A stretch of DNA of 64,000 nucleotides from an uncultured virus (IMG/VR IMGVR_UViG_3300006921_000001). Lineage: Duplodnaviria > Heunggongvirae > Uroviricota > Caudoviricetes. How positions within the stretch are numbered: the stretch's first letter is position 1; each line of letters begins with the position of its first letter. Made by a program: the position numbers and the translations under genes. The stretch lies in the IMG/VR virus record IMGVR_UViG_3300006921_000001; one strand, given 5' to 3'. Positions 499 through 57,019 of this stretch are shown here, piece after piece. The notes beneath the pieces are model-generated. The model worked only from the letters and a program-made list of their open reading frames with translations, searched no databases and was not told the origin of the DNA.

Positions 499-1923
499 TT
501 GGATAATAACTTATTATACGAAATGGATTTAAAAATGTCTAAAGGTAATTTTGATTATTTTTTTACTAAGGTATTAGGTTATGAAATGGCACCCTTTCAT
601 AAACAGTGGTTAGAAGAAGTACAGAGTAGTAATAGAACTGTTATTATTTGTTCTCGTGACCACGGCAAGTCGGTTTTTTTCCACTCTTGGTGTGTATTTC
701 AATTATGTTTTCAGGAGCCTCCATATCAAATGCTGTATATTTCATCTAATCATAAACAAACAATGGTGCATATGAAAGATATTGACCGCATGTTTACTAA
801 CATACCACAGTTAAAGCGATTTAAGCCGAGGGCTGGTTGGGCTGTAGGTGCTATGCGCTTAACAAACGGAAATGAAATACTTGAGCGTTCCGTTGGTTCA
901 CAGATTCGTGGGCTTCACCCTCAAGAAATTATTATTGACGACCCACTAAAAGAGTTCTCAATGAATGCTATTCAACGTGTAACAGATTGGTTTTGGGGTG
1001 ATATGATTCCCACATTACATCATACTGCTGCTTTACGAATGGTGGGGACTCCTTTTACTTACACGGATATTTTTTCACAACTATCTGAAAACCCAGCATA
1101 TGAAGTTAAAAGATACCCTGCTATAAACCAAGCAGGTGAGGCTTTATGGCCTTCCAGATGGGACAAAGATAAATTAGAACAACGTAAAATAGAAATTGGT
1201 TCCAGTAAGTTTACTAGAGAATATCTATGTATTCCTATAAGCACAAACACCATGCTCTTTGCACCCGACCATATAGAAAAATGTAAGGACCGAGATGCAG
1301 TTCTTACATCATCTAGAATAGCCGAAGATAGAAGATACTATATTGGTTACGACCCAGCGATTTCAGCGAATGGCGATTGGACAGTAATGACTGTATTAGA
1401 GGTAGATGATGAAATGAATAAAAAAATAGTCCATATATTTAGAGCACAAGGTTTAGATTTTAGAGAACATATAATGCATGTTATGGACCTCTGTAGAAGA
1501 TACCAACCGGAAATTGTTATGATTGAAACAAACACATTCGCTAAAGCGTTTTCTATGGAGTTAAAAAATATTAGTGACTTCCCAATAAAAGAATTTACCA
1601 TGAGTAGAAAACGTAAAGAAGAAATTATTTTAAACTTACAAATGAATATTGATAATCATAAAATTATTTTTCCCTACGGTAATGAAGAATCAAGAAAGGT
1701 TAGTAGACAATTGATTCAGGAGTTAGAAGCCTTCGGTATTAATCACAATGGTAAGATAGAAGGCGTGGGCGCACATGACGATATGGTTATATCTTTAGCG
1801 TTGGCTAATTATGCTACAAAGAAGTTCTCGGATGTATTTACGCTACTCGATGATGAGGGAATCTTTAATAATGGCTCCCCGTCTATCCCCTTTATAGGTG
1901 GTGGTATCTATGGTATTAATTAA
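499..1923 (+). CDS. terL: terminase large subunit
   Basis: Walker A CSRDHGKS, Walker B IIIDDP, GTP coupling motif, RNase H-like nuclease GYDPA ... HDDMV; TTG start after GGGTGA RBS. Confidence 0.95.
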   Translation: MDNNLLYEMDLKMSKGNFDYFFTKVLGYEMAPFHKQWLEEVQSSNRTVIICSRDHGKSVFFHSWCVFQLCFQEPPYQMLYISSNHKQTMVHMKDIDRMFTNIPQLKRFKPRAGWAVGAMRLTNGNEILERSVGSQIRGLHPQEIIIDDPLKEFSMNAIQRVTDWFWGDMIPTLHHTAALRMVGTPFTYTDIFSQLSENPAYEVKRYPAINQAGEALWPSRWDKDKLEQRKIEIGSSKFTREYLCIPISTNTMLFAPDHIEKCKDRDAVLTSSRIAEDRRYYIGYDPAISANGDWTVMTVLEVDDEMNKKIVHIFRAQGLDFREHIMHVMDLCRRYQPEIVMIETNTFAKAFSMELKNISDFPIKEFTMSRKRKEEIILNLQMNIDNHKIIFPYGNEESRKVSRQLIQELEAFGINHNGKIEGVGAHDDMVISLALANYATKKFSDVFTLLDDEGIFNNGSPSIPFIGGGIYGIN

Positions 1924-3301
1924 GTTCGATACAGACCAAATGCGGCAAGAATTGGACGAGTTAGACAGGGCAAAACAAGACGTTAAACAACAAGAAGAAG
2001 CAAGAGTTAAACCTATTGAGGAACGAATTAAACAGAACCTTAAAACTAAGTCAGAAATTAACTCTTGGTTAGACATGCAATCAGATTCAGAAATTGATGT
2101 AGTTAAGTCCATTTCTGCTATGTGTGGGGTGAATCTAACAAGTGCTATGTCTTTTATTCCTGCCTACCCTACCCCTCCTGTTGTTGGCGATAAAAATCTT
2201 CCTGATTTAGTAAAGGAGATGAGAAAAATCCGCAGAGGTCTAAAGGGTGGACAGCGTGATAGTATCGCTAAAGGTATTGACCACCTAATTACCGCATATC
2301 AAGAATACATCGGTAAATGTGTAGATTCTATTTATTGGCTCCGCCCATATCACTCCCCACTCTATGATTCAGGTCTATCCGAATCAAAAATCAAAAAACT
2401 ATACAGTGTTAAGGATTCAGACCGTAGACAAACAATTATTGATAATCTTTGTAAAATGTGGGACGCTAAGTTAGAGCGTAGGGAATTAGATTACGGTCCA
2501 GAATACTCTACTTTAACAAAAGAAATCAATAAGGGTAAAAAAGAAATTTCATCCATACTTCGTTCTATTAAACATCAAGATATTAGAAAGTCCCGAAGAG
2601 AAAATATCGAAATAGAAATTAGAGATATTATTAATGAAAATCCGGGAATTACTTCTAATACTATTTTTGAGAAAATGAGTGAGAAACATGCAAAGTATTC
2701 CACACCATCTACGATTGCTAAGATGGCTATGACAATAGGCGCTACTAATGTAAATAGTGAATATTACCTTATTAGAGATGCTATTCGTAAAGATTTATAT
2801 TCCTATGTTGCCGGCTTTATTGATTCGGATGGATATATTACTATGGATAGTAAGTACTCTCCGAGAGTAGGCATGGTCGCCACCGGTAATAGAGGTAGAG
2901 CCTTTTTTACTGAATTGGAGTCAGAACTAAAATGTGGTAGATTACATTTAGACCAAAAAGTAGGAGAAAATAATAGAAGTCAGCACCGACTAAATTTTTA
3001 CAGTGCTAATGATATTGGGACTGTTTTAGATAAGTGTATTCCCCATCTTCGTATGAAAAAGAGTCAGGGGAGATTAGTCAAGGAAGCATTAAGAATTAAA
3101 AAGAATCATAAGAACCAACCGTGGGCAAAAGAACGCCTTAAGGAAATTTTCCAACTAATTAAATATGAAAACTGGAAGGATGCTAGGAACACTTATGAAT
3201 TAGACAAGTATGGAGTTAATCCAGAAGTAGTAGTTAAGTATTTTGATAATGATAAAAATTCAATAATGGATGATTTAGAATCCATCGTAAAGGAGGAATA
3301 A
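1910..3301 (+). CDS. multidomain protein with C-terminal single-motif LAGLIDADG endonuclease domain and a probable wHTH
   Basis: YVAGFIDSDGYI LAGLIDADG helix, CIPHLRMKK downstream motif, INENPGIT wHTH-like segment; ATG 1910 follows AGGTGGT. Confidence 0.8.
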   Translation: MVLIKFDTDQMRQELDELDRAKQDVKQQEEARVKPIEERIKQNLKTKSEINSWLDMQSDSEIDVVKSISAMCGVNLTSAMSFIPAYPTPPVVGDKNLPDLVKEMRKIRRGLKGGQRDSIAKGIDHLITAYQEYIGKCVDSIYWLRPYHSPLYDSGLSESKIKKLYSVKDSDRRQTIIDNLCKMWDAKLERRELDYGPEYSTLTKEINKGKKEISSILRSIKHQDIRKSRRENIEIEIRDIINENPGITSNTIFEKMSEKHAKYSTPSTIAKMAMTIGATNVNSEYYLIRDAIRKDLYSYVAGFIDSDGYITMDSKYSPRVGMVATGNRGRAFFTELESELKCGRLHLDQKVGENNRSQHRLNFYSANDIGTVLDKCIPHLRMKKSQGRLVKEALRIKKNHKNQPWAKERLKEIFQLIKYENWKDARNTYELDKYGVNPEVVVKYFDNDKNSIMDDLESIVKEE

Positions 3302-3302
3302 T

Positions 3303-4928
3303 ATGGGAGTAAGAGATAGGCTAAGTAATTTAATCAGGAGAAGGACACCTACTCCTGTAGAAAAGGAAGTATATAATTTAGGTATACAAGAAAAGAAACA
3401 CCCTCAACATATTTTGGGTCCTGCCCTATACAACGTAGCAGACCAATCTGTTGTTGTTAGGACGTGTATTACACAATTAAAAACGGAAATTTTCCGTCGA
3501 GGATATCAGTGGGAAAAGGCATTTTATAAAAAATGTACTAGTTGTGGTGAAGAATATCAATCAGAAATAGACGAGTGTTCTGTTTGTGGCTGTGTTGAAT
3601 TTAGAGGCCCCGACCCCATGCAAAAGAAATATGCTGAAAAAATGGTAAACGGGTATGTAAACAAATCAGACCAGTTATTCGTTGATGTTTTAAAAGAAAT
3701 AGAAAGAGATTTAAATGTTGCTGATGATGCATATCTTATATTTGTTAAGGAATATTATGTAGATGAGTTAGGTAATATTAAACTACATAAAGTAAAAGAA
3801 CTATACCGTGGTGACCCACTAACTATGTATATTGATGTAGACAACGACGGTGATAGAGGAACTTCACATTATACTTGTGTTACCCATAGAGAACTATATA
3901 CAGATGACCCACATGAAAATTGTCCTGAATGTAATGCTTCTTTACACCCTGTTGTATATGTTAATCGCGTTCATGGACATGAACAATATTATATCGAAGG
4001 GGAGGTTGTTCACGTTAGTAAATTTAGCCCTAGTAGGCTATACGGAACATCACCAATTATTACTCTATGGAGTCATATTACTACCCTTCTTGCTATGGAG
4101 AATTATATTAATACATCGTATAGTAAGGCCCGCACACCGAAGGGTATCTTAGCGGTTCAGACAAACAATATGGATTCACTAATTAGATACTGGAGAGGTG
4201 TTAAAGAGAAGTTAGAAAAAGACCCACACTATATTCCTATTATGGGTATTGAGACAGAAGCCGGAGGACGTGGAGAAGTTAAATGGGTTCCGTTTATGCA
4301 GAGCCTAAAAGAAATGGATTATTCCGCAGTTAAGGATGATTTAAGAATGCGTATTGGTGCTTTCTATGGTATATCACCGATTTTTCAGGCTGATAACACA
4401 ACCGGTGGCGGTCTAAATAATGAAGGTTTACAAATTACAGTAACTAACAGAACCATAGAATTAGCACAAAGCGTATATAATAAATATATATTTCCTTATA
4501 TGGAAAGACAGTTTGGTGTTACTGATTGGAATATTAGGCTGCTACGCTCTGAGGAAGAGGACGATGTTCATGCTATGCGACGACGTGAAACAGAAGTCAA
4601 TATTGCTGGTCAAATGAAGAACTTAGGGTTTGATGTAGATATGGACGAAGACGGAAACTTTATCTTTAAGAAGATGGTTAAGCCGGATGAAGTAATACAA
4701 CAAGCACAGGCTAAAGGTGCAGAATTTCAGGCAGACCCATATGCAGGAACAGATATAGATGCTAGATACTTAGGGCAAATGCAAGCAGATATGATGCAGC
4801 AAGGCAACCAACCAATACAAACAGAGGGCCGTGGAAATAAGAGTAGTACTGCTTTACAATTAGCAAATAGAAATACAGGTGCTCCCGCAGGAACAGCGAA
4901 TGAAAATGTGGATAGGAGGACAGAATAA
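3303..4928 (+). CDS. portal protein with Zn-finger-like insertions
   Basis: Position after terL; portal motifs YGTSPI, TPKGIL, IGAFYGISPIF; inserts CTSC..CSVC and CVTH..CPEC. Confidence 0.9.
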   Translation: MGVRDRLSNLIRRRTPTPVEKEVYNLGIQEKKHPQHILGPALYNVADQSVVVRTCITQLKTEIFRRGYQWEKAFYKKCTSCGEEYQSEIDECSVCGCVEFRGPDPMQKKYAEKMVNGYVNKSDQLFVDVLKEIERDLNVADDAYLIFVKEYYVDELGNIKLHKVKELYRGDPLTMYIDVDNDGDRGTSHYTCVTHRELYTDDPHENCPECNASLHPVVYVNRVHGHEQYYIEGEVVHVSKFSPSRLYGTSPIITLWSHITTLLAMENYINTSYSKARTPKGILAVQTNNMDSLIRYWRGVKEKLEKDPHYIPIMGIETEAGGRGEVKWVPFMQSLKEMDYSAVKDDLRMRIGAFYGISPIFQADNTTGGGLNNEGLQITVTNRTIELAQSVYNKYIFPYMERQFGVTDWNIRLLRSEEEDDVHAMRRRETEVNIAGQMKNLGFDVDMDEDGNFIFKKMVKPDEVIQQAQAKGAEFQADPYAGTDIDARYLGQMQADMMQQGNQPIQTEGRGNKSSTALQLANRNTGAPAGTANENVDRRTE

Positions 4929-5116
4929 TGAACTGGCAAGATATTCTTAAAACAGATTTTAAGAAATTAGATAATATAGCATTAAGAAATTTATATTATA
5001 GTTTAAAAGATACTGCTAGAACTGAAGAGGATAGAAAATTTCTTTTTCAAATAATTGAAGAAATGATACAAAGAGGTATGTGGAGAACTTCCAATTACAG
5101 AACAGGCAGAAAATAA
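4928..5116 (+). CDS. small hypothetical protein with N-terminal WxxILK tag
   Basis: TAATG coupling to portal; begins MNWQDILKT. Confidence 0.7.
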   Translation: MNWQDILKTDFKKLDNIALRNLYYSLKDTARTEEDRKFLFQIIEEMIQRGMWRTSNYRTGRK

Positions 5117-5130
5117 AGAGAGATGATAAA

Positions 5131-5349
5131 ATGACTGACATGATTAAAAGAAAGTTAAATGATATGAAACAACAATTAAGTAAAATCGAGAGCAAAGTAA
5201 ATGCTCCCGAACCCGTTCAGAAAACAACAACTAACATGGTTCCCGCAGGTGTTGGTGAAGCAACAGAACCTACGCGAGAAGCAGAACCCGGCGCACCCGG
5301 TTTTATTACTGGTGGGCCTAGAATGAGTAAGAAGATGAAAGAAGTTTAA
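5131..5349 (+). CDS. hypothetical head-module protein
   Basis: ATG 5131 preceded by GAGATGATAAA; coiled-coil N-terminus, Pro/Gly-rich C-terminus. Confidence 0.65.
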   Translation: MTDMIKRKLNDMKQQLSKIESKVNAPEPVQKTTTNMVPAGVGEATEPTREAEPGAPGFITGGPRMSKKMKEV

Positions 5350-5358
5350 GGTGATTAA

Positions 5359-7416
5359 ATGGGTTGGGAAAATATTGTGAAAATTAAAAAACCATCACCA
5401 TATGTCCCAAGAACGGTCACCGTTGGTGAAGAACCAAACAAAAAGGATTTTAAAGAAATAGGTATTCCACAACCTTTTTTTAATAATTTAGAGGAAAGTT
5501 TTCTTAATGATATTTTAGAATTATTACCTGACCTAAAAATGGATACTATCCAAAAAATTGAGGTTCCATACGATAAAATATTAACATTAGATTTTCTAAG
5601 ATATAAAAAAATACCATCAGAAAAAAAGAAAGAATACTTAACTGATATAAAAAACAAAATAGTTAATGAAATTTTTTATATAGTTATAAAACCTACATTA
5701 AAGGGACGGCAATCGGTTCTCCCTCCATATCCAAAAACACCATTAAAAATATTACAGGATAGACCTAATATTGATTATGAAAAATATGGTGGGGAGGGTA
5801 CGCTTTCAGATAGATTTGTAGACCAAGCGGAAGAATTAGTTACGGATATAGCCACAGCAATCAGTAGAATATTAGTACCCTATGTTAAAGAAACCACTAA
5901 AAGGTCCGAGCCATCCAAAGATGATGACGATACTCCGAGACAAGAACAGATTGTAGAAACACCAGCGAGTAGTGTAGATATGGGTACGGTCTATGCTACA
6001 TTATTACAGGGTACGGATAAAGCCAGAGGCTTCAGGGATACAGTTGATTTAGATTCCGAAGGTAAGCCCAATATTACTAACGAGGTTGTAAGAATCTTTG
6101 AAATACATATTAATGACTTGTATAAAAATGTGTATATACATAATGCAAGTAAATTTAATGACAAAATTTACGCTAAAGTGGATAAATTTTTTGAGCAGTT
6201 ACAAGAACTAGATAACTCCGATAAAGATAACGCCTACAGAAAACCTCATGTTCTCCTAGATAATATATCAATGTTAAGAATAATAATGAGAATATGGTTC
6301 ACTGCATATAGATTAACTAATGTAAGAAATCTGAATACTGGGTTAAATAAACCAGTACGACAATCTGCAAAACGTGAATATAAACCAAAGGGCTTAAAAA
6401 TGTGGATTGGGGATGAAGAATTTGAACTAACTCCACAAAATGCTCAATTGTTACAGGAAGAATACAAAAAGGTAGGAACGTATAGTTTCCGCGACCCAAA
6501 AGCGGGAGAAAAAACGGCTAAAAGAGAGCAGGAACTTGCTGAAAAACAAAAACAATTAAAAGAAACAGTAAGTAAAATTAAGGAAATAGATAAACTTTTA
6601 CAGGATACAGATGAAAGAAAAAACGAAGACGGGCTATTAGACCTAGCAAATATGATTGATAGTGGTGAGGTTGAAGTATCGGTAGGTGGAAAGTCGATAC
6701 AAGACAGTGAATTAGTATCAAGTCAGAAGTTAAGAGCAGACCGTAAAGAATTATTACGTCAGCATAAAGAATTAGAGGCTACTATTCGTGTTAAACCATC
6801 CATTGAAGACAAAGAAATAATTGAAGCGGCTATGGCAATGGTAGACCCTTCTTATGCAAGGTCAGGAAAAACAATTACTAGAGAAGGTTCTCAACAGACG
6901 CAATCAATGAAAAGACGTGCTGCACTTGGAGCATATGATACGCCACCATCGGATGATAAGCGTTCTAAAGAAGAGTGGGAAAAAGAATTCCAAGAGGCTC
7001 AAGCCGAAATGTATGGCGAAGGTAAATACCCTAAAGGGGGTAAAGTGGGCAAAGCATTGGATTTACTAATGGGTGAATTGGGTGTAACATCAAATACTAT
7101 AATTAAAGCAGACAATAGTAAAATTCTACAAGAATTAAATAAAAAAGACAAAAGATTAGTAAAGACCCTACTACAGTTGGCACACCCAACAGAATACTTC
7201 AATGAGGATGCCCTAAAATTAGGAGAACTTATTACGGTATTGAAGTCGTTGGGTATTGTTAACGATAATAAGGCGCTAAAAAAGAAAGTCCTTAAATACG
7301 AGGACGAGAATCTAAAGGTTGTGAAGAGAGCGGTTCGATTACGCCGCGAATATGAAAAACTATATAAATCAATTAGAGAAGTAATCTACCCGAAGTCAGG
7401 TGAAAAAGATGAGTGA
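5359..7416 (+). CDS. large hypothetical protein with N-terminal WxxIVK tag, candidate internal head protein
   Basis: AGGTGA RBS; begins MGWENIVKI; helical and charged; internal TIIK-A site before a C-terminal coiled-coil domain. Confidence 0.75.
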   Translation: MGWENIVKIKKPSPYVPRTVTVGEEPNKKDFKEIGIPQPFFNNLEESFLNDILELLPDLKMDTIQKIEVPYDKILTLDFLRYKKIPSEKKKEYLTDIKNKIVNEIFYIVIKPTLKGRQSVLPPYPKTPLKILQDRPNIDYEKYGGEGTLSDRFVDQAEELVTDIATAISRILVPYVKETTKRSEPSKDDDDTPRQEQIVETPASSVDMGTVYATLLQGTDKARGFRDTVDLDSEGKPNITNEVVRIFEIHINDLYKNVYIHNASKFNDKIYAKVDKFFEQLQELDNSDKDNAYRKPHVLLDNISMLRIIMRIWFTAYRLTNVRNLNTGLNKPVRQSAKREYKPKGLKMWIGDEEFELTPQNAQLLQEEYKKVGTYSFRDPKAGEKTAKREQELAEKQKQLKETVSKIKEIDKLLQDTDERKNEDGLLDLANMIDSGEVEVSVGGKSIQDSELVSSQKLRADRKELLRQHKELEATIRVKPSIEDKEIIEAAMAMVDPSYARSGKTITREGSQQTQSMKRRAALGAYDTPPSDDKRSKEEWEKEFQEAQAEMYGEGKYPKGGKVGKALDLLMGELGVTSNTIIKADNSKILQELNKKDKRLVKTLLQLAHPTEYFNEDALKLGELITVLKSLGIVNDNKALKKKVLKYEDENLKVVKRAVRLRREYEKLYKSIREVIYPKSGEKDE

Positions 7417-7642
7417 TGATAACGATTTACAAATGTTACTAAAAGAGTTAGTAGACCGTGTTAAAAGCCTTGAGGCTATGGTTTACAGTTCAGATAATAT
7501 TCTTATGAAGTCGGGTCTTGTTAAGACCCAAACACAGGTTCCCGCTGTTTCTAGTGGTAGTCCACTACCCGATGCTGATACCATCGCAAAAATGGATTGG
7601 ACAGAACTAGACAGCATGGTTAAAAAAATTAATGGTGAATAA
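7409..7642 (+). CDS. hypothetical head-module protein
   Basis: AGGTGA RBS before ATG 7409; C-terminal IAKMDWTELDSMV resembles scaffold C-terminus IGELSWEEVNALA. Confidence 0.7.
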   Translation: MSDDNDLQMLLKELVDRVKSLEAMVYSSDNILMKSGLVKTQTQVPAVSSGSPLPDADTIAKMDWTELDSMVKKINGE

Positions 7643-7643
7643 T

Positions 7644-8252
7644 ATGGAATACGATAATTTAGGAGAAACAGAAAATTTAAGCGCACATAGGGATGCCCAA
7701 AGCGATGCGGAAAAGAAAGTAACAATGGCCCTAACACAATTACGAGATTTAACAACATTGATTAGTAACCATTTAGGAAGTCCAGTGGACCCTGATGAAC
7801 ACGCAGAAGATGTTAAAGTAAATAAGCCAGCATCTAAGAAAGTAGATGTATTTGGTGTTCAATTTGATGATGGTCCATTAGGTCCACGTTCTATTCCTCG
7901 TGGTGCTGCAAAACCAAATAAGCCAACAACAATGAAAAAGGCATATGGTCGTGATAAACTAGATAGAGATTTAGCAGGACAAAAGTATGTAGGGCGTGGT
8001 GCAGACCGTGAACCTATGGAGGATGAAGCCGGTCCTATGGAAAGAGGTCCAGTAATGGGTAAAAAGCGTAAACCATCAGTAAAGGAATCTTTACCAGAAA
8101 TGGCTGCTTCTTTTAAAGCAATTGCTGAACAGGTAAAATCTGTGAACATGTTGTTGGGCAAATTAGTCGAGCAAGAGGCTTCAACAAAAGTTTCCGCTAA
8201 AAGAGCAAATAGACCACAGGATGAAGACGAGCCTACTAAGGACAGATTCTAG
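7644..8252 (+). CDS. hypothetical head-module protein (low complexity, charged)
   Basis: GGTGA RBS before ATG 7644; long ORF in operon. Confidence 0.7.
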   Translation: MEYDNLGETENLSAHRDAQSDAEKKVTMALTQLRDLTTLISNHLGSPVDPDEHAEDVKVNKPASKKVDVFGVQFDDGPLGPRSIPRGAAKPNKPTTMKKAYGRDKLDRDLAGQKYVGRGADREPMEDEAGPMERGPVMGKKRKPSVKESLPEMAASFKAIAEQVKSVNMLLGKLVEQEASTKVSAKRANRPQDEDEPTKDRF

Positions 8253-8262
8253 GTGGTTTAAT

Positions 8263-8682
8263 GTGGATTGGAAAATTATCCTAAAAGCAAAATTATCTGA
8301 TTCTCAACGTATTACTATAATGCGTATTATTACTAAATATTTACAAGATAAAAATATAGGTATTAACATAGAATATACCGGTATAGACCCCGGTGAATTT
8401 AGTTTTGGGACTGAACAAGAAGTAAGATTTCCTAATAACTATAAAATTACCACATCAGACGCTTCAGCAAATTTTCATATAGATTTTAATCCTCATAATT
8501 TACAACCTGTAATTAGACATAAAAGTGGTCAACTAAGTTTAACACTAATGTTAGAAGATATTTTAGGAGTAGGGGACCCAGAAAGAGCCGAAGAACCATT
8601 AATAGATATGATAATGGAAGTAATGAAAAAACCAAAAGCCGGCAAACCAAAAGACGACAAAGGGGATGTTTCTTTTGGTTAA
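8263..8682 (+). CDS. hypothetical protein with N-terminal WxxILK tag
   Basis: AGGTGG at 8251-8256 favours GTG 8263, giving MDWKIILKA. Confidence 0.7.
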   Translation: MDWKIILKAKLSDSQRITIMRIITKYLQDKNIGINIEYTGIDPGEFSFGTEQEVRFPNNYKITTSDASANFHIDFNPHNLQPVIRHKSGQLSLTLMLEDILGVGDPERAEEPLIDMIMEVMKKPKAGKPKDDKGDVSFG

Positions 8683-10765
8683 TAGGTGGATGCCAAAATA
8701 TAATCACTGTAGGGTCTTATATCTTACCGCCAAAGAAGACCCAAAAACCTATGGTGGTGAATGGGCAGAACTTATTTCTGAACTACAAACGAGTATGGAA
8801 GATGACGAACATCTTAAATCATACGTTGAACTACGAATACCACTTACTCGACTTAATCAAGCAAGGAATGTTACATCATCCCATGCAAAATTAGTTCTAG
8901 ACGTGCTACGTGAAATTGCCACATCTAGCCCTATATCAAAAGAAGACCAAACTAAACTAAACACTTTTATTATGCCAAATAAACCTATGTATAGAATATT
9001 CGAGATTGATGACCTTAAAGAACTTAAGGGGTTTACAGGTGAGTGGATTGTTCAAGAAAAATTTGATGGTCTTCGTATTCAGATTCACAAACTTAAAACT
9101 GTAAAAATATTTTCATTTAATGGTAGAGATATTACAGATAAGTTCCCAAAACAAGTAAAAAGATTAGAGCAAGATGTGTTTCCAAAATGTATATTAGATG
9201 CGGAAGCCGTTCTTTACAAAGATAACGAACCCCTACATAGAGCAGACACAATTGCTTATATTAACAAAAAAGATGCTAAGGCAGATATCAAAGTTCACGT
9301 ATTCGATATTCTTCGCCATCAAGGTGAAGATATTTATGCTAAGAAGTTAGAGGAAAGAATTATGACTCTCTTTAAAGAATATTCTGCACTAAGCGACGAC
9401 CAAATACAATTCCCATCTAAACGCGATACGCGCTCTGCAGATTCATACGAAGAGATAGAAGATTACGCAAAGGAGATAATGCAAAATCCAACATCAGAAG
9501 GAGTAGTTATTAAAGATAGTAAGTCATCATATGTTATTGGTAAGAAGAAAAATCCTAAGTGGGTTAAATGGAAAAAATTCATAGATTTAGATTTAATGGT
9601 ATTAGAAGTTAGAGAAAATAAAAATGGGACTTATAGTTACACATTAGGTGCTGGACCTATGGATGACGATGATGAATATAAACCAGTTGTAGAACATGAG
9701 GGTAAAAAATACCTTAACGTTGGAAAGGCTCTAAATACAAAAGAAAAGGTAGAAGTTGGAGATATTATTAGAGTTAAGGTTGACGAAGTTCAAGCAAATA
9801 AAAAGGGATTTTCTATCTACTCTGCCAAATTTGTCGAGATACCTGAAGTAACAGAAGCGGAAAGAATTATTACCTTAAAGTTCCTTTCAGAAGATAACAA
9901 AAAAAGATTATCAGATTATACTATTGAAGCACTAACTAAATCATATGTAATTACAGATAACATACATGGGTCTGCAATTATTAAAGGTGAACTATCTATG
10001 GAAGGTTTTATCGTTCACGGGTTTGAAGAAAATAACCTCATGGCAAAAAATGCTACTATTGATATAGAACTTTGGAAGGAGGAACTAGGTAATAAGTATC
10101 TAAAGGATAGTGCTGTTTTAATGACATTGGTTAGTAATATGACTCAAGAAGATACCAAAGTATCTGTAAAAGAAATAATCTCCCGTGCTGAAAATATGAA
10201 TAATATACTTAGTAGATTATTTAAGGGTAAGGGTGAAAAGTTAGAAGAAGAAGTTACTGCCTTTTTACGTGAGCGTGGTAATGCTTATGGTATTCTGTAT
10301 GATAAACCTGCTCGTCTTTTTTATAATGATGATAAAATAGAATTAAAAGAAGAACCTACCACGTTTGAATTATGGCGAAGAAAGGACAAAGACCTTAATT
10401 TTGTAATAAAGCACAAAGGAAAAGAAATGGTTTGGCGAATAGAACAAAGTGAAGACATAGATATGTATAATTTGTTTGGTAAGGCGGATAAATTTTTAGC
10501 ACAAATAGATACTGATGCGGATAAAGTAAAATTATTATCTAAAGGTGGTGCAGTAATTGGTAGTCAAAGAAATGGTTATCACGAATACATAATTGATTCA
10601 AAAATGTATGATGGTAAGATACACTATCGGGTCGTACCATTTAAAGATAAGAATAAGTGGATAGTATGGACAGGTTATAAAACCAAGCCCACAGATAAGA
10701 CAAGCGATGAAGGACTTGTAAATATCTACGACGATAAGTATAAAAAACTCAAGTTTTCCGATTAA
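8666..10765 (+). CDS. lig: ATP-dependent DNA ligase embedded in head module, with long C-terminal extension
   Basis: Motif I EKFDGLR, III ILDAEAV, IIIa VFDIL, IV SEGVVIK, V WVKWK, then OB fold; start may be ATG 8690. Confidence 0.9.
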   Translation: MFLLVNRWMPKYNHCRVLYLTAKEDPKTYGGEWAELISELQTSMEDDEHLKSYVELRIPLTRLNQARNVTSSHAKLVLDVLREIATSSPISKEDQTKLNTFIMPNKPMYRIFEIDDLKELKGFTGEWIVQEKFDGLRIQIHKLKTVKIFSFNGRDITDKFPKQVKRLEQDVFPKCILDAEAVLYKDNEPLHRADTIAYINKKDAKADIKVHVFDILRHQGEDIYAKKLEERIMTLFKEYSALSDDQIQFPSKRDTRSADSYEEIEDYAKEIMQNPTSEGVVIKDSKSSYVIGKKKNPKWVKWKKFIDLDLMVLEVRENKNGTYSYTLGAGPMDDDDEYKPVVEHEGKKYLNVGKALNTKEKVEVGDIIRVKVDEVQANKKGFSIYSAKFVEIPEVTEAERIITLKFLSEDNKKRLSDYTIEALTKSYVITDNIHGSAIIKGELSMEGFIVHGFEENNLMAKNATIDIELWKEELGNKYLKDSAVLMTLVSNMTQEDTKVSVKEIISRAENMNNILSRLFKGKGEKLEEEVTAFLRERGNAYGILYDKPARLFYNDDKIELKEEPTTFELWRRKDKDLNFVIKHKGKEMVWRIEQSEDIDMYNLFGKADKFLAQIDTDADKVKLLSKGGAVIGSQRNGYHEYIIDSKMYDGKIHYRVVPFKDKNKWIVWTGYKTKPTDKTSDEGLVNIYDDKYKKLKFSD

Positions 10766-10797: not shown

Positions 10798-12048
10798 ATG
10801 GCGTTAAGCACAAATATGCTAGGAGCGCATTTTGGAGCCGGAAGTGAACTGGTTATTCTAAAGGGTAGTAGAAACGAACCTTTAGTAATTGCTGGCTACG
10901 CATCAGTAGATGTAGTAGATAAGCAGAATGACCTAATTACGTTAGATGCACTTAAGGAAGCATCTGATAAGTTCATGAAAGGTGATTATAAAAATGTTAT
11001 GATAACGCATTCCAATGTGCAGGTAGGAGAAGTGATTGATAATTGGACGGACTCAAAAGGAAATGTATTAAAAACACAAGTTGATGATACAGGACTTTTT
11101 GTAGTTATTAAACTTAGAGAAGATATTGAGAAAGCAAGAGAAGTAGGACGTGAGATTCGTAGGGGAAATCTACGTTCTTTTAGTATCGGAGGTCAAGCCC
11201 TTCACAAGTCGAATAGATACGACCCCGATGTTGGAACATATAAGGAGATAGATAAGTTGGAGTTACACGAAGTAACGATTTGTGAAGAAGGCATAAACCC
11301 CGAAGCGAAATTCGATATTGTTAAAGAACATAAAAGAGATGATAAAATGTCAGAAGAAATTGCAAAAGCATTAGAAGAATTTAACGACGTTGTAGCAGCA
11401 TTGCGCAACCAAGTTGATATTAAGAAAGATGATTCAATGGACGAGGAAAACATGGAACCTATGATGGAAACAGATGAGGAACTCATGGAAGCCCCGGTAG
11501 AGAATCTTATGGATAAGGCTGAAGAAGATGACGAAGAGATGTTAGACGACGAGGAAAATAAGGCTGAGTCCGTAGTATACGGACACAACGAAACTGGTCA
11601 GTCCCGCATTGATGGTGCATTAACTGGACGCTACAGTGGCGAATTTAAGAATTTCGTCACACGAAAGTCCGAGAGTATTAACTCATTGGACTTAAGCGAG
11701 GAAACCCTCGCAAAGGCTTACGAGCAGTTTAAGTTAGAAAAGGAAGAGGCCCGCGCTTATGATGTAATCAAGGAGCAGTTTGAAAACCTTTACGAGCAAG
11801 AACTAAAGTCAGAAGCAGAAGATATTGCTAAGGCAAATTACGACGCTGCTGCTGAAGTCGCTGCACTCAAGAATGAGTTCGCAGAACTTCGCAAGTCATT
11901 AGAAAGTAATAACAATGTTATTGCAAAGCAGGTTCAGAGCGTTGCTGCTGGACCACAGTTAAGTGAGGAAATGCTCTTAAAGATGCAAAACATTGGAGAA
12001 CTATCGTGGGAAGAGGTTAACGCCCTAGCCCGCGAACTACAGGAGTGA
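10798..12048 (+). CDS. prohead protease (HK97-type) fused to acidic scaffold domain
   Basis: IAGYASVDVVDKQND, MITHS, LRSFSIGG, LHEVTICEEGINPEAKF; acidic coiled-coil C-terminal half; directly upstream of MCP. Confidence 0.92.
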   Translation: MALSTNMLGAHFGAGSELVILKGSRNEPLVIAGYASVDVVDKQNDLITLDALKEASDKFMKGDYKNVMITHSNVQVGEVIDNWTDSKGNVLKTQVDDTGLFVVIKLREDIEKAREVGREIRRGNLRSFSIGGQALHKSNRYDPDVGTYKEIDKLELHEVTICEEGINPEAKFDIVKEHKRDDKMSEEIAKALEEFNDVVAALRNQVDIKKDDSMDEENMEPMMETDEELMEAPVENLMDKAEEDDEEMLDDEENKAESVVYGHNETGQSRIDGALTGRYSGEFKNFVTRKSESINSLDLSEETLAKAYEQFKLEKEEARAYDVIKEQFENLYEQELKSEAEDIAKANYDAAAEVAALKNEFAELRKSLESNNNVIAKQVQSVAAGPQLSEEMLLKMQNIGELSWEEVNALARELQE

Positions 12049-12053
12049 TATAA

Positions 12054-13352
12054 ATGAGTGTAAACACAATTAGAACAATTCAGGATTTAGAACGAGCAAC
12101 CTACGGTAGTATGGGTGGAATGCAGTTACTAAAGGGAGCAGGAGCAGAATCAGGTATTCACTCCGCTCACGATGTAACTCTTCAATCTGCATTTAACGGT
12201 AGTGGGCTTTACAACCATATTTACGGACAGAAAGTTTGGTCAATGCTTAACCGCGAAATTAACGCATTAAGTATTTTACCTAAGAAACCTTGGTCTTCCT
12301 CCGGTTGGCGCATCTTAAAGGAGCGAGCAATTGGTGGCGGAGCAGATGTTTGGGCTACGACTGGTGGAACTGGTCACGGTTCTCTAACAGAAGGAGCAAT
12401 TGGTGGTGTAGCAGAAAATGCAGCATTTACAACAAGTGCAACAGATGGACTAAGTCCATTGAAGCCAGTTTATGATGTACTATATGCTAGCCCAAAAACC
12501 ATTGCACATCAGTTCGAGATTTCCGAACTTGCTGCTGCTATGGCAAAGATTGACGATGGAATTGGCGATATTATGTCTGCTTACCGTGAAGAAATTGGTG
12601 TTTCTCACGCAGAAGTCATGAATCATATGGCTCTAATGCCACTTGAATCCCAATTTAGTGGTGCTACACCATTAAGCGGAATTGCTAACAACCTAACTTC
12701 TTTGTATAAGATTGTATCTTCATATGATGAAGTTAACGCTATGGACGGTGGAGTAATTATCACTGGTACACAAACTGCTGCTGAAGAATTAGTACGTCTT
12801 TATGGTCATGACCGCGCCGCTTCTGGTGCTGATTGGCTAAACGCATATGTTGACTACGGTTCTTCATATGCTGCACGACGACCATTAACTCTTAACTTGT
12901 TAAACACAGCATTACGCGAGTTGCAGATTCGTGGCGGTTCACCAAAGGTTATCCTAACAGGATATGATACAATTCAGGCCCTCGGTGAATTACTACAATC
13001 TCAAGAACGATTTATGGGACGAACAGAAATTGTTCCTACTCATAACGGTGTTCGCGGTGTAAAGGGACGAGAACTTGGATTCAAGGTTGCAACATACCAT
13101 GATATTCCAATTATCCCAACAAAGGAAATGGGAAGTACTGGCTCAGGAACTGGTCTATCAGATATACTTATCTTAGATACAGACCATATTTTCCTATGCA
13201 CTCTAAAACCAACCGAATATTTCGAGGGCGGTATTGACGCTGGCGACCCATTCGGTGTAGGCAAACTTGGAAACCGAGGGCTTTACCGAACAATTGGTGA
13301 AGTCGTCTGTACTTTCTTCAAGGGTCAAGGTAAGATTACTAACCTTTCGTGA
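12054..13352 (+). CDS. major capsid protein (HK97 fold)
   Basis: 432 aa after protease; YGQKVWSMLN, LPKKPWSSSGWR, LILDTD typical of archaeal tailed-virus capsids; QLLK-G probable maturation site. Confidence 0.9.
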   Translation: MSVNTIRTIQDLERATYGSMGGMQLLKGAGAESGIHSAHDVTLQSAFNGSGLYNHIYGQKVWSMLNREINALSILPKKPWSSSGWRILKERAIGGGADVWATTGGTGHGSLTEGAIGGVAENAAFTTSATDGLSPLKPVYDVLYASPKTIAHQFEISELAAAMAKIDDGIGDIMSAYREEIGVSHAEVMNHMALMPLESQFSGATPLSGIANNLTSLYKIVSSYDEVNAMDGGVIITGTQTAAEELVRLYGHDRAASGADWLNAYVDYGSSYAARRPLTLNLLNTALRELQIRGGSPKVILTGYDTIQALGELLQSQERFMGRTEIVPTHNGVRGVKGRELGFKVATYHDIPIIPTKEMGSTGSGTGLSDILILDTDHIFLCTLKPTEYFEGGIDAGDPFGVGKLGNRGLYRTIGEVVCTFFKGQGKITNLS

Positions 13353-13730: not shown

Positions 13731-13740
13731 GGTGAATAAG

Positions 13741-14112
13741 ATGGTTCGAGTACGATACTTAAATGGATTTTGTCGCGTATATGGTAAAGAATTTTACCCT
13801 AATATGTGGACAGAAGTACCGGACGATTGGCTGCCTAGATTAAGTAATGATGCAGGTTGGGAAATTGAAGGAGAAACAACAGAAGAAACAACAGAAGAAA
13901 CAACTGAATTAGTTGAAGAAACTGTTGAAGAAACTGTTGAAGAAACTCTTGTGGTGGAGGAAGAAGAATCTTCCGATGAAGCCCAAGAGGAACCTTCACT
14001 ATCAATGACCAAAAAAGAATTACAAGGTCTATGTGACGAAAAAGGACTTGAGTATTCTAAGTTAGATACTAAGTCCACACTTCTAGGTTTATTATCCGGT
14101 GAAGAAGAATAA
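13741..14112 (+). CDS. acidic protein with C-terminal SAP/HeH-like DNA-binding motif
   Basis: GAGGTGA RBS before ATG 13741; MTKKELQGLCDEKGLEYSKLDTKSTLLGLL; ETTE/ETVE repeats. Confidence 0.7.
   Translation: MVRVRYLNGFCRVYGKEFYPNMWTEVPDDWLPRLSNDAGWEIEGETTEETTEETTELVEETVEETVEETLVVEEEESSDEAQEEPSLSMTKKELQGLCDEKGLEYSKLDTKSTLLGLLSGEEE
13872..13947 (+). repeat. 12-bp in-frame tandem repeats (GAAGAAACAACA / GAAGAAACTGTT)
   Basis: Directly visible; encode EETT/EETV linker. Confidence 0.75.
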
Positions 14113-26079: not shown

Positions 26080-27191
26080 ATTTAATTCCATATGCGGGAA
26101 ATCAATATGGGTTAAAATTCCCAGTTCTTTGTGATGGGTATGTTAGTGTAGATTATTCTGATAATATTGCATCAGAGGCTAGGGGTATTTGGGACCACGA
26201 AGGTAGTTTTACAGTTGAAATGTTATTCGTTCCTTACGATGTAAACGGATATGGTTCTAATTCTCAGGCTGCAGCCACTTATGATAGGTCTATTAATGGT
26301 GACTTTGGACACCAAACTAGTCAAAAAACTATGCCTTCTAGAGAAAAAAACATCAGTACAACTACATTAGATGAAGGCTACATGCCTACAACTAATAGAT
26401 TATCTCACCAAATGTGTTTATTTTCAAGTACTAATTTTAAATTATATTTAATAAACAGCACAACAACAAATGTTAATCAACCAGCGGAGTATTATTTTGA
26501 AGCAAAATTAACTACAGGTAGTACAACTAGTACAATAAGAACTCCTGTATTATTTAAATCAAGAAATACACATAGTATGAATGCTTCTGCTCCTACCGAG
26601 TTTAATTATATTAATAACCAAGTTCATTTGATGGATAGTGGATTTAACGCTACCTATCCTTCTTCGGCCGCATCTCCTACTACTAGTAAAATGGATATAA
26701 TTGATTCAAATAATGGTAGAGCGCAAATAGGTACAAAGTTATATAAAAGTGATGGAACTGTTATGGGTACTATTACCGCTGCTACGTATACTTCCGGTAG
26801 AGCATTACTAACATTAGATTCAAACGTAAGTTCTCTTAATGGAGAAGATATATACATAGAAGCACCTCGAGAAATTACTTACCCGCTATCACCTCATCAT
26901 GTTGGGGTTAGTTATCATAAAGCATCTAACTCTATTAATATATTTTACAACGGTGCTAAGGTTAGTACATTAAAGCACACAGATACAAACACATTTAGTT
27001 TCGGTAATGCTGATATTACTTTAGGTCAGGATAGAACTAGTTCCTCTAAAAGATATTCACAGTTTATGGGAGAACTTCACGAAGTAGCAGTAATACGTGG
27101 TTCAAAAAATTCTATCAATACTACAACTACTTTATTACCACAATATAATGATACGTTACTATATGTTGATTTCGAGGAGGCAGATATATGA
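26076..27191 (+). CDS. tail protein with LamG/concanavalin-like domain
   Basis: SFTVEM, HHVGVSY, IFYNG, LGQ, FMGELHEV. Confidence 0.75.
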   Translation: MNLIPYAGNQYGLKFPVLCDGYVSVDYSDNIASEARGIWDHEGSFTVEMLFVPYDVNGYGSNSQAAATYDRSINGDFGHQTSQKTMPSREKNISTTTLDEGYMPTTNRLSHQMCLFSSTNFKLYLINSTTTNVNQPAEYYFEAKLTTGSTTSTIRTPVLFKSRNTHSMNASAPTEFNYINNQVHLMDSGFNATYPSSAASPTTSKMDIIDSNNGRAQIGTKLYKSDGTVMGTITAATYTSGRALLTLDSNVSSLNGEDIYIEAPREITYPLSPHHVGVSYHKASNSINIFYNGAKVSTLKHTDTNTFSFGNADITLGQDRTSSSKRYSQFMGELHEVAVIRGSKNSINTTTTLLPQYNDTLLYVDFEEADI

Positions 27192-54115: not shown

Positions 54116-55618
54116 TTATCCAATCAACTCCTTAACTGACTTGAACTCACTAGGCACATCTTTATCGGTGCGGAGCCTAATAAACCTCGGGAATCTAAGT
54201 CCTATATTTCCATCTTGGTCTTGAGTTACAATATCAGCATGCACTTCCATTATAGTGACTGGGTTATCATTATGATATTCATGAACCATTTCTAAATCCA
54301 AATCAGTGAAACCAGTTCCCACGGAACCCACTGGTGTAAGTTGCCCATCAATTTTAACACCTATAAGATATGAACCGTAAAGTCCGGCCCTTTTACCTGA
54401 ACCCATTGTAGCATCAATTATTTCACAATCCAAATCTACTAGAGCAGGCTTGTGTTTTAACCATGAACGCTTACCCGGTTCATATACTTGGTTAGCCCCT
54501 TTAAGGACTAAACCTTCATAGCCAGCCTTGATTGCTTTATCGTAGGCGGCTCGGATTTCCTCTTCACCATTAACGATTTCAGTATCTGTAATGTTGACAT
54601 TTGGAAAGTGCATACGGATAGTATCTAGTCGATTACCATATCCAAAACTATACGTGTCTTGCTTATTGAAGGTGAGAATATCAAATATGATTGCCTTAAC
54701 CGCTACACGGTTACGCACCTCTGGTGTCTTACCATGAATACGTGGCATAATCTCCTTGAACTCAAGAACATCTCCTTGCTCATTAACAGGAACAATTTCA
54801 CCATCTAGGATAAACTCATCATATTGTTCACCCCAAGATTCAACATCAAGGTCTGCGAACTTCTCTGTAATATCTACACCCTTGCGGTTAAAGATACATA
54901 CATGACCGTTTTCATCCCTATGAAACTGAGCACGAATACCATCATACTTAACATCAGCATAAAAAGTCCCTCGCAGGTTCTTTGCTGTTTTTGCTAGTTG
55001 TGGTTTAACGTAACTGCCCGGCTCTGGAACCAATAGTTCTCCTACACCATTACCTTGACACACTTCATCAATAATAATATTTAGATTATTAAACTTAAGT
55101 GCCGTCTTAAAATCTCCTGATGGGATAAGATACTTCTTTTGCAGGGATTTTTTAGTTACATTATCACCTGCACCGTTTCTCTTTTGGTTTATTACAACTG
55201 CTGTATACCACTTCTTTTCTAGTTTACCCATATTACTGAAACGTTCCATGAATAGTTGCCTAGCGGTAACTATATCTTCTGCAATAGAAAGTGGGTGAAA
55301 CGCATCATATAAACAATAGTCAATAGAATCACCGGCATCAGTTCCAAACTCTTCAAGTAGTTCGGGAACTCCACCAAAATCATCTACTAAATCCTGTAGG
55401 CCTTCATCATCTAATCCTAGATGTGTAGCAATATGTGGTAAAAGGTTCTTTGCTCCTAAACCCACATTACTAAACTTATCTGTTAGTGTGTGGTAGAACA
55501 TAGACCAGTCCTTTGATAAATCATTATCAGCAACAATACTGTTAATAATTTGTGTTGGGGTCATATCGAGATATGATTCCATCTTTTGTGCAAAATCACT
55601 CATCAACATTTGTTTCAT
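54116..55618 (-). CDS. lig: ATP-dependent DNA ligase (replication arm)
   Basis: KPQLA, KYDGIR, ILDGEIV, IFDIL, YEGLVLK, WLKHK, VGTGF, LRFPRF. Confidence 0.95.
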   Translation of the reverse strand: MKQMLMSDFAQKMESYLDMTPTQIINSIVADNDLSKDWSMFYHTLTDKFSNVGLGAKNLLPHIATHLGLDDEGLQDLVDDFGGVPELLEEFGTDAGDSIDYCLYDAFHPLSIAEDIVTARQLFMERFSNMGKLEKKWYTAVVINQKRNGAGDNVTKKSLQKKYLIPSGDFKTALKFNNLNIIIDEVCQGNGVGELLVPEPGSYVKPQLAKTAKNLRGTFYADVKYDGIRAQFHRDENGHVCIFNRKGVDITEKFADLDVESWGEQYDEFILDGEIVPVNEQGDVLEFKEIMPRIHGKTPEVRNRVAVKAIIFDILTFNKQDTYSFGYGNRLDTIRMHFPNVNITDTEIVNGEEEIRAAYDKAIKAGYEGLVLKGANQVYEPGKRSWLKHKPALVDLDCEIIDATMGSGKRAGLYGSYLIGVKIDGQLTPVGSVGTGFTDLDLEMVHEYHNDNPVTIMEVHADIVTQDQDGNIGLRFPRFIRLRTDKDVPSEFKSVKELIG

Positions 55619-55841: not shown

Positions 55842-56206
55842 TTTTCCATCTCCTTTTTGTTATAAAAATACTTTAATATTTTATTGTTTAAATCTGTAAT
55901 AATAAATACTACTCCCATTATGCTATTTACAGAAATCACTTGCTTTTGCCCCTGAACCTTGTAGGTTTCTACCGTTGGTGTAATACCATACAGCCGACTA
56001 CTTTCAAATGATACCCGTTGAGCATTGTCTTTTATCCATTTAATGATATGAGGTTCTTGAACCTCGACCCACATAGGACCATCAAGTTCCAATTCTCCGG
56101 TAAGATTGCATACATTACATTCTTTACCATCACAGATTGGGCACTTGATACTTAAGACGTTAACTGGGAATCTAATAGTATTTACTCTTCCTCTATGTCC
56201 AGACAT
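55820..56206 (-). CDS. protein with DnaJ-like Zn ribbon
   Basis: CPICDGKECNVCNLTG. Confidence 0.65.
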   Translation of the reverse strand: MSGHRGRVNTIRFPVNVLSIKCPICDGKECNVCNLTGELELDGPMWVEVQEPHIIKWIKDNAQRVSFESSRLYGITPTVETYKVQGQKQVISVNSIMGVVFIITDLNNKILKYFYNKKEMEKWLAKEK

Positions 56207-56649
56207 ATTGCTTCCGTCCTGTATAGCATATCTCCTTCACTTTGATTGTTTTCCCATCTCATAGATTGCTTATCACCTAAGACAATTGCTTCCATAAGAA
56301 TAGGTCTTTGTGTATTGATTGTTCTCCAATCCGTTCCACTAAAATATGCTTGCCCGAAAGGATGTGTATGAATCCAACACTTGATTGGAATCCTCATACC
56401 TGCTACATTTTCATCTGTGTAATCGACAAATACCCCTGTCCCTTTACTAATATACAACTTATTATTACCATCTACTATTACACTTACCTCTAATCCCGGT
56501 AAGACCTTTGTTGATACGTACCATATTTCATCTAAGAACCGTTGGTTATATTGTGTTTGTCCATATTGGTTAAACACCTTAACAATAACTTGCTTCCAGT
56601 GTTCCCATTCTTTGTTCGTAATTTCTTTCTTTTGTTCATTGAGTTGCAT
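56182..56649 (-). CDS. JAB/MPN+ metallo-isopeptidase
   Basis: LEVS (catalytic E) ... WIHTHPFGQAYFSGTD (HxH-x7-S-x2-D). Confidence 0.9.
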   Translation of the reverse strand: MQLNEQKKEITNKEWEHWKQVIVKVFNQYGQTQYNQRFLDEIWYVSTKVLPGLEVSVIVDGNNKLYISKGTGVFVDYTDENVAGMRIPIKCWIHTHPFGQAYFSGTDWRTINTQRPILMEAIVLGDKQSMRWENNQSEGDMLYRTEAICLDIEEE

Positions 56650-56900: not shown

Positions 56901-56901
56901 T

Positions 56902-57015: not shown

Positions 57016-57019
57016 GTTA

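Follow-up and report, generated by a model that had tools for sequence, protein, structure and literature searches.

Two DNA enzymes in the head module

The 64,000-nucleotide stretch of DNA analysed here (the window) comes from an uncultured tailed virus, IMG/VR record IMGVR_UViG_3300006921_000001, whose head genes include two that encode DNA enzymes: a LAGLIDADG nuclease protein, here called X, and an ATP-dependent DNA ligase. From open reading frames (ORFs) together with Pfam and PHROG matches, we read the head gene order on the + strand as terL, X, portal, a variable stretch (a 685-amino-acid (aa) ORF plus small ORFs), ligase, protease and major capsid protein (MCP). X occupies 1910..3301 (463 aa from ATG 1910, or 467 aa from GTG 1898), between the large terminase TerL (474 aa, 499..1923; phrog_38, E 4.2e-53; PF17289, E 8.4e-7), whose nearest PDB sequence is T7 gp19 (4bij, E 1.6e-5), and the portal protein (3303..4928; phrog_18178, E 1.4e-68). 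The head-module ligase (699 aa, 8666..10765; PF01068, E 1.3e-27) precedes the prohead serine protease of the S78 type (10798..12048; PF04586, E 7e-13), which continues into an acidic linker and a coiled-coil, scaffold-like C-terminus (51 distinct sequences aligned), and the protease is followed by the MCP (12054..13352; phrog_24667, E 7.5e-24; 37 distinct MCPs aligned).

A conventional, archaeal-type ligase of 500 aa is encoded on the - strand in the replication module (54116..55618; PF01068, E 8.7e-36; PF04679, E 1.1e-11; E 5.6e-36 to 2cfm, the P. furiosus ligase). The head ligase is 28% identical to it across 227 aa, and the two are distinct proteins. An earlier note on this DNA, made from the letters alone, had drawn attention to a full ATP-dependent ligase between portal and protease in addition to the conventional one, and to a 463-aa protein between terL and portal that ends in an intact single-motif LAGLIDADG domain; our analysis bears out both descriptions, the former by PF01068 and the complete set of ligase motifs, the latter by sequence and by fold.

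The + strand carries the head and tail module of a tailed virus from position 1 to about 39.4 kb, and the - strand an archaeal-type replication module with a family B polymerase, an ERCC4 nuclease, a PD-(D/E)XK nuclease, ribonucleotide reductase, a ThiF/JAB pair and the conventional ligase. This layout, and the occurrence of relatives on marine contigs of 90-100 kb, match the magroviruses of Marine Group II archaea as they are presented in the parts of Philosof et al. (PMC5434244) consulted here. Of 21 runs listed, 17 marine metagenome runs contain half or more of the words sampled from the first 10 kb of the window.

The presence of a ligase and a LAGLIDADG gene in the structural module of magroviruses was described in 2017 (Philosof et al., PMC5434244). 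The earlier note mentioned the published ligase, and was incomplete in that the LAGLIDADG gene is reported in the same paper. According to the sections consulted, a LAGLIDADG homing endonuclease gene is inserted among the structural genes of groups A, B and D, group C viruses have a PolD-exonuclease homologue at its place and are devoid of ligases, and the alternative nucleases are assigned 'analogous roles in replication'. Within the portions of the literature on these two genes that we consulted, we found no mechanism beyond that phrase; a 2025 paper merely counts LAGLIDADG homologues among repair genes in the part available to us (PMC11706807). Compared with the consulted 2017 text, the domain architecture, the conservation of catalytic residues, the coupling to terL and to the protease, the LigD-like domain of the ligase and the fusions of that domain to proteases are new.

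Protein X and the tie of its gene to terL

Homologues of X begin at a segment equivalent to the MVLI that starts at ATG 1910, so the length of 463 aa given by the earlier note is correct; the frame read from this ATG overlaps the end of terL by 14 nucleotides (nt). The AlphaFold2 (AF2) model of X has a mean pLDDT of 83.6 and describes one protein with three domains. The N-terminal domain (residues 12-223; 1931..2566) is all-helical, opens with a long helix (residues 12-47) and has R112, R113, K116, G117, Y134 and W147 as invariant residues; fold searches gave no convincing match for it and a search of the protein language-model Atlas gave none. It is followed by a winged helix-turn-helix (wHTH; residues 232-292, 2591..2773) that aligns in VIA-align with Z-alpha, IclR, Fur and MarR-type winged helices at a root-mean-square deviation (rmsd) of 1.5-2.2 over 52-64 residues and at Z 7-8, which the tool's own note ranks as middling.

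The third domain (residues 294-445; 2777..3232) is an I-CreI-type LAGLIDADG domain, with its sole motif, GFIDSDG (residues 306-312), at 2813-2833. By sequence it is tied to I-CvuI (E 0.0057, phmmer against the PDB), and no Pfam LAGLIDADG family matched X even at E<=10. The fold of the predicted model is clearer: Foldseek returned 47 PDB matches at E<=0.001 (best 5.7e-6), all of the listed ones being LAGLIDADG enzymes, and VIA-align gave Z 14.7 to I-MsoI (rmsd 2.7, 136 residues aligned), 13.8 to I-CvuI and 13.7 to an I-CreI variant, over 133-136 residues. The domain thus has the alpha-beta-beta-alpha-beta-beta-alpha arrangement of the family, with a single motif per chain as in the homodimer-type enzymes. 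Residues D309, S310, D311, G312 and K387 are shared by all 177 of the distinct sequences compared, the motif Asp (D311), whose conservation the earlier note had proposed to check, among them. Through the alignment with I-CvuI we take D311 and K387 to be the counterparts of D20 and K98 of I-CreI. PHROG family phrog_5046, which matches X, bears the label 'HNH endonuclease', and this is contradicted by the LAGLIDADG fold. A free-standing LAGLIDADG protein of 156 aa with a similar fold is encoded by Haloarcula vallismortis tailed virus 1 (BFVD L7TNM9, E 2.3e-5), a halovirus; the halovirus head module resembles that of magroviruses.

The X family comprises 348 proteins at E<=1e-3; among the matches listed nearly all are 434-577 aa long and several lie on contigs of 90-100 kb, and there were zero matches in the 'phages' collection. 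Three members of the X and ligase families (P0099, P0102 and P0204) are publicly named as proteins of bacterial metagenome-assembled genomes (Maricaulis sp., Altibacter sp.), and one of the three sits on a 92.9-kb contig typical of magroviruses. They are probably encoded on viral contigs that were binned into bacterial genomes, and such misbinning may be the source of the 'uncharacterized bacteria' in the ligase clade of the 2017 study.

To follow the two genes across relatives, 87 loci were fetched around portal homologues (54-100% portal identity; the best 80 of 433 relatives were kept), a sample that represents the nearer part of the family and includes many near-identical viruses. X stands right after terL in 68 of the 68 loci that show terL, with its N- and C-terminal parts in one ORF in every case, and X and the head ligase are both present in all 47 loci that span both positions, in a fixed gene order. 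The patchy, homing-like distribution that the earlier note named as a refutation of its idea is not seen. In the most distant loci the LAGLIDADG part of X retains 46-58% identity, the portal 54-60% and the N-terminal part of X 32-39%. The divergence of the nuclease domain is therefore close to that of the portal, suggesting that X evolves like the core head genes. The spacing of X is also uneven: in 62 of 64 loci it starts between -113 and +12 nt relative to the stop of terL (57 and 241 nt in the remaining two; starts are those of the longest ORFs, which makes the overlaps upper bounds), and the distance from its end to the portal start ranges from 0 to 2964 nt across the 68 loci. Tight spacing on one side and a variable gap on the other make X a satellite of terL. 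Its universal presence, its constant fusion to the same N-terminal domains and its invariant catalytic residues do not follow the patchy and decaying pattern of homing endonucleases, and X is adjacent to the terminase as accessory nucleases are.

TerL itself appears intact in sequence, with ATPase and RNase-H-like nuclease residues (G56, K57, S58, D147, D148, D285, E343, D427 and D428) that never vary among 21 sequences and are retained in at least 97% of a set of 52. No small terminase was recognisable upstream of terL, where, depending on the locus, a weakly GNAT-like protein or a 448-aa protein of unknown family is encoded. The ORF at 1-480 of the window is the C-terminal third of such a 448-aa ORF (L002:5832-7178), and a GNAT-like gene of about 180 aa takes its place in loci L010 and L012. 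In L005 and L006 the terL is 100% identical to that of the window, yet the upstream ORF is just 40% identical; differing upstream ORFs beside identical terL genes point to a recombination boundary exactly at the start of terL.

The head ligase and its relatives in other head modules

The head ligase family has 829 members at E<=1e-3. Its core and C-terminal part lie directly upstream of the protease in all 65 loci showing the protease, with -20 to +57 nt between the ligase stop and the protease start in 57 of 57 loci. The predicted model (mean pLDDT 77) starts with a short helical domain of about 86 residues and a disordered linker (residues 88-99); Lig1-type alignments begin at model residues 83-104. 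The nucleotidyl-transferase and OB core (residues 100-395; 8963..9850) aligns with the A. fulgidus ligase 3gde at Z 22.3 and with Sso ligase, Lig1 and Lig3 at Z 21-22. PF04679 gave no Pfam match on the head ligase; the OB fold is present by structure, in that alignments to full ligases cover model residues 88-412 at Z 20-22. No variation is seen across 30 sequences in motifs I, III, IIIa, IV and V (K132, D134, G135 and R137; D178 and E180; F213 and D214; E278, G279 and K283; K301 and K303). In a larger set the adenylation lysine of motif I, K132 (9059-9061), is found in 173 of 174 sequences, the other having a gap, and D178, E278, G279, K283 and K303 in all 174.

Beyond the core, residues 413-468 (9902..10069) are the best-conserved part of the ligase outside the catalytic centre (Y418, K425, D431, H434, G435, N457, L458, M459, K461 and A463 are invariant), yet they are the least confidently modelled (pLDDT 32-46); this stretch could be a partner-binding element. 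A helical domain of winged-helix likeness comes next (residues 474-557; 10085..10336), with weak alignments at Z 8.1-9.0 to 2od5, 1ldd and 9rvy.

The protein ends in a beta domain (residues 564-674; 10355..10687) that resembles a reduced form of the 3'-phosphoesterase (PE) of LigD. In VIA-align the modelled domain has the PE beta-barrel fold, with Z 10.6 to 3p4h_A (rmsd 2.0, 93/118 aligned) and Z 8.9 to 3n9b_A, and the Atlas placed it with LigD_N clusters at 0.83 and 0.82, which we take as a lead only. Sequence searches are less generous: PF13298 was not matched at E<=10 by any of nine C-domain sequences, nor in any of four magrovirus records, and a profile search of the PDB returned nothing relevant. 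A C-domain profile run against 1.84 billion representatives found 56 matches, mostly fragments of the same family, and 11 distant proteins. Two matches, P0282 and P0283, were set aside as repeat proteins. In P0277 and P0287 the matched region follows a ligase core and overlaps a sub-threshold PF13298 hit (E 2.2e-4 and 1.4e-5), and it is solely through such intermediates that the C-domain is tied to PF13298. An attempt to read the last ~115 aa of these two proteins as a protease domain was abandoned, the matches being merely weak and local ones to hidden Markov models (E 0.008-0.05), with no PHROG match.

The metal-binding motif of the LigD PE consists of His, His, Asp and Arg. In the C-domain alignment all sequences have in common a C-terminal half of the form I.D.G.V..G.Q+..[FY]HEY...G...R. 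The relatives carry FVxQxHWxGxxxHxD[FL]R, and the nine magrovirus sequences aligned with MAFFT have neither the His and Asp at those columns nor the inserted segment. The metal motif is therefore missing from the magrovirus domain, and the PE-like domain of the window is probably a non-catalytic remnant.

Among the distant proteins, P0288, P0289 and P0294 join a metallo-beta-lactamase-fold (MBL) nuclease to a ligase and a C-domain homologue. In P0286, P0290 and P0293 the homologue stands N-terminal to a head-maturation protease (Peptidase_S78_2, E 1e-17 to 3e-30; phrog_3017, E 1e-21 to 1e-36), and P0290 additionally carries a D12 methyltransferase. The gene for P0290 is on a viral contig of 50 kb, in a canonical head module where an HK97-type MCP (RcGTA capsid, E 1e-20) follows two genes later, and from this position we conclude that it is the prohead protease of that virus with attached enzyme cargo. 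The protease parts of these three proteins are also matched by phrog_1530 ('DNA methyltransferase') and phrog_14859 ('RNA ligase'), two families that consequently seem to include enzyme-protease fusions; it may be common for head proteases to be fused to nucleic-acid enzymes.

P0287 is encoded in L089, a locus of an unrelated virus in which tblastn with the window finds the ligase core alone, at 30% identity. The order there is the end of terL, portal, a LAGLIDADG protein, the ligase-PE polyprotein, a 220-aa ORF, cement and MCP. The LAGLIDADG protein has 732 aa and two motifs (PF14528, E 3.5e-10; phrog_4645, E 3.3e-38). Two further loci, L091 and L092, have a Mu-type portal, a giant protein with MBL and ligase domains (1568 or 1885 aa), an S78 protease-scaffold, cement and a Mu gpT-type MCP. 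Across the three loci tblastn with the window recovers nothing but the ligase core, at 26-30% identity, and the protease of L092. The regions flanking the nuclease domain in the L089 LAGLIDADG protein match those flanking the MBL domain in the giants of L091 and L092; matching flanks around different nucleases have the appearance of an exchange of nuclease modules. We also considered whether the large proteins encoded next to the portal might be MuF-like and gave this up, PF04233 being found in 0 of 5 records.

Three observations on these proteins were made in passing. In L096, a contig 97% identical to L089, about 1 kb of extra DNA (L096:6644-7671) falls inside the gene for the LAGLIDADG polyprotein, between residues 453 and 439-732 of the L089:1816-4014 protein; an insertion, an intron or intein, or a difference in assembly could account for it. 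P0277, P0286, P0287 and the L089:1816-4014 protein have in common, by eye, a repeated helical motif of the form LH.....H..I..EM..RG..H...D.LD, which could be a linker or a capsid-targeting element. The same four proteins contain a GDIDILI-type segment that resembles, again by eye, a minimal nucleotidyl-transferase.

Elsewhere in the window, a small ORF of 126 aa (13732-14112, +), which comes just past the MCP gene and a 121-aa ORF, has weak PHROG matches to endonuclease VII (E 4.3e-5) and to an Arc-like repressor; it could encode a third DNA enzyme of the head module, or merely a ribbon-helix-helix protein. The tail region contains a 2587-aa ORF (27188-34951, +) with no Pfam match at E<=0.001. 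On the - strand, a ThiF-like E1 (E 1e-16) adjoins a weak JAB-domain ORF at 56182-57595, which suggests a ubiquitin-like modification pair, and a weak match to pyrimidine-dimer glycosylase (PF03013, E 4.2e-4) lies in the replication module at 62196-62753. The IMG/VR record G005, from which locus L023 derives, has 184,733 bases and is rated 100% complete, about twice the usual magrovirus size of 90-100 kb; its length may reflect a concatemer or a larger relative.

Packaging, delivery and competing explanations

The strict gene couplings, the intact chemistry of both enzymes, the protease fusions and the recurrence of nuclease and ligase modules in other head regions lead us to think that X and the head ligase serve the packaging and delivery of the genome, rather than being selfish elements or spare replication genes. 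The division of labour that we tentatively put forward, as a possibility that falls somewhat short of being probable, is that X cuts viral DNA site-specifically together with the terminase at packaging, and that the ligase travels inside the capsid and seals the genome once this has entered the cell. X would act as a homodimer-type LAGLIDADG endonuclease aimed by its winged helix, and would introduce a site-specific double-strand cut into replicated viral DNA alongside the terminase. The ligase, LigD-like and equipped with extra DNA- or partner-binding domains, would be loaded into the procapsid with the protease and scaffold and would seal ends or nicks of the delivered genome. Its link to the capsid is circumstantial, consisting of the adjacency to the protease in 57 of 57 loci and of the fusions of PE domains to head-maturation proteases.

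The closest working precedent for X is gp74 of phage HK97, an HNH endonuclease that promotes cos cleavage by TerL (PMC9410871, in the part consulted). Both are nucleases encoded beside terminase genes. Unlike gp74, X has a LAGLIDADG fold rather than the HNH fold of gp74-like accessory nucleases, and carries a wHTH and a 220-aa helical domain in addition. X shares with I-CreI, I-MsoI and I-CvuI the fold (Z 13.7-14.7), a single motif with the catalytic Asp and a Lys equivalent to K98; in contrast to them it is not borne by an intron or intein, is not patchily distributed, is fused to other domains and is fixed across the virus order. The head ligase is comparable to bacterial and archaeal LigD of non-homologous end joining in that an ATP-dependent core is joined to a PE-fold domain (archaeal PE, 3p4h), and it differs in its order (ligase, then PE) and in having no polymerase domain, PF13298 match or His/Asp motif. 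For this enzyme the closest precedents are the internal head proteins that are ejected with the DNA. In T4 and the phiKZ-like phage SPN3US, enzymes enter the prohead, are trimmed by its protease and leave the capsid together with the DNA (PMC10052503). Those cases rest on virion mass spectrometry, whereas the magrovirus likeness is one of genes, and the examples given in the consulted part of that paper do not include a packaged DNA ligase.

A more general version would hold that several tailed-virus lineages load an end-joining kit into the capsid, and that in magroviruses X sets the genome ends and a co-delivered ligase re-closes them; taken as a whole we regard it as quite unlikely. Such a kit would comprise a site-specific or end-processing nuclease (LAGLIDADG, MBL or PolD-exonuclease), a LigD-like ligase and a PE domain, and it would be loaded because its genes are coupled to the prohead protease gene or fused outright to it. 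LAGLIDADG enzymes leave 3' overhangs of 4 nt, and those of the homodimeric I-CreI type cut pseudo-palindromic sites of about 22 bp. The magrovirus enzyme would accordingly be expected to define 4-nt cohesive genome ends at packaging, and a pre-adenylated ligase would re-close the genome within moments of entry, independently of the host ligase.

Several points weigh against a joint role in packaging and delivery. TerL retains its own nuclease residues, so that a helper is not obviously needed. The gene coupling of X is with terL and not with the protease, and nothing links X physically to the capsid. The missing His/Asp motif makes an end-healing activity of the ligase doubtful, and the 11 distant C-domain matches reach whole-library E values of only 1e-7 to 1e-3. 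As most of the counted loci come from closely related viruses, the counts are not independent events. The parallel in L089 is a single lineage, seen in two contigs of one virus; beyond the motif, no homology was detected between its two-motif LAGLIDADG protein and X, and that LAGLIDADG part could be a selfish insertion.

The most serious competitor is DNA maintenance late inside the cell, with neither enzyme encapsidated: the ligase would seal nicks in concatemers and keep the packaging motor from stalling, X would make breaks that start recombination-dependent replication or resolve concatemers, and the place of both genes in the head module would simply set a late timing. T4 packaging needs both ligase and endonuclease VII, and the small ORF past the MCP gene has its weak endonuclease VII match (E 4.3e-5). 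The window also has a rich replication and repair module, and analogous replication roles for the alternative nucleases are what the consulted text of Philosof et al. (PMC5434244) proposes. We consider this account somewhat unlikely, since a replicative ligase is already present, timing alone leaves the strict adjacency to terL and protease unexplained while neighbouring genes vary, and the fusions of PE domains to head-maturation proteases are left unexplained as well. Sunlight may instead be the relevant pressure. The ligase would then belong to a capsid-delivered kit that repairs damaged virion DNA after injection, together in relatives with a pyrimidine-dimer glycosylase, PE and MBL or LAGLIDADG nucleases, and X would be a separate, terminase-linked matter. 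The hosts inhabit sunlit surface water according to the consulted part of PMC5434244, the 17 marine metagenome runs fit such a habitat, phages are known to package enzymes and eject them (SPN3US, PMC10052503), and P0277 and P0287 are single head-module polyproteins in which ligase and LigD_N-like domains are joined to Pyr_excise-like and DUF6884 parts. The Pyr_excise matches are however short and below or near the cut-off (E 5.9e-5 and 0.0029), the head ligase of the window has no glycosylase part, and a site-specific LAGLIDADG enzyme has no obvious role in repair, which makes repair of this kind an unlikely explanation.

The mechanism suggested by the earlier note, in which X and the ligase are packaged polyproteins cut by the protease at hydrophobic-x-K sites, the released nuclease cuts within each of the two terminal redundancies when the DNA enters and the ligase closes the genome into a circle, seems to us very unlikely. 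Its five sites do exist at the places given, in predicted linkers or low-confidence stretches, and their lysines are conserved (K298 of X and K425 of the ligase invariant; K231 of X and K92 and K561 of the ligase kept in at least 90%). Similar conserved motifs occur near the N-terminus of the MCP (an invariant L-L-K about 30 residues in, among the 37 distinct MCPs) and at the end of the protease domain, where FDI[VL]K[EQ] precedes the acidic linker and coiled-coil tail; the circumstantial capsid link of the ligase applies here too, and magrovirus genomes assemble with overlapping ends (PMC5434244, consulted portion). The motif is nonetheless too common to carry the argument. It occurs 22 times in X and 23 times in the ligase, both Lys-rich, with most of the conserved copies within helices or strands, and 12 of the 19 conserved lysines in X have a conserved hydrophobic residue at P3, mostly inside helices. 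The sites are thus weak evidence, compatible with processing and showing nothing by themselves. A cut at K298 would moreover trim the LAGLIDADG domain and detach it from the wHTH, trimming both redundant ends at entry would discard sequence for no evident gain, and the X gene is coupled to terL and not to the protease. Hardly credible, finally, is a domesticated or fossil homing endonuclease gene next to a moron ligase, neither of use to the virus. LAGLIDADG genes are typically mobile. The 2017 paper calls this one 'inserted' in the consulted text (PMC5434244). The distribution already contradicts such an origin without function, given the universal presence of X, its fused and conserved domains, catalytic residues that are invariant in 177 and 174 distinct sequences for the two proteins and the fixed gene order.

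Magroviruses rank with the most abundant archaeal viruses in surface ocean water, and no member is in culture. If the two enzymes act solely inside the cell, the finding amounts to no more than a curious gene order that is already in print. The question can be tested without a culture, thanks to the protease fusions and the parallel modules in other viruses. If both enzymes do serve packaging and delivery, magroviruses would be the first example of a LAGLIDADG enzyme at work in a packaging system and, among tailed viruses, of a DNA ligase delivered by the capsid, and fusion or coupling to the prohead protease would be a general route by which DNA enzymes are loaded into capsids.

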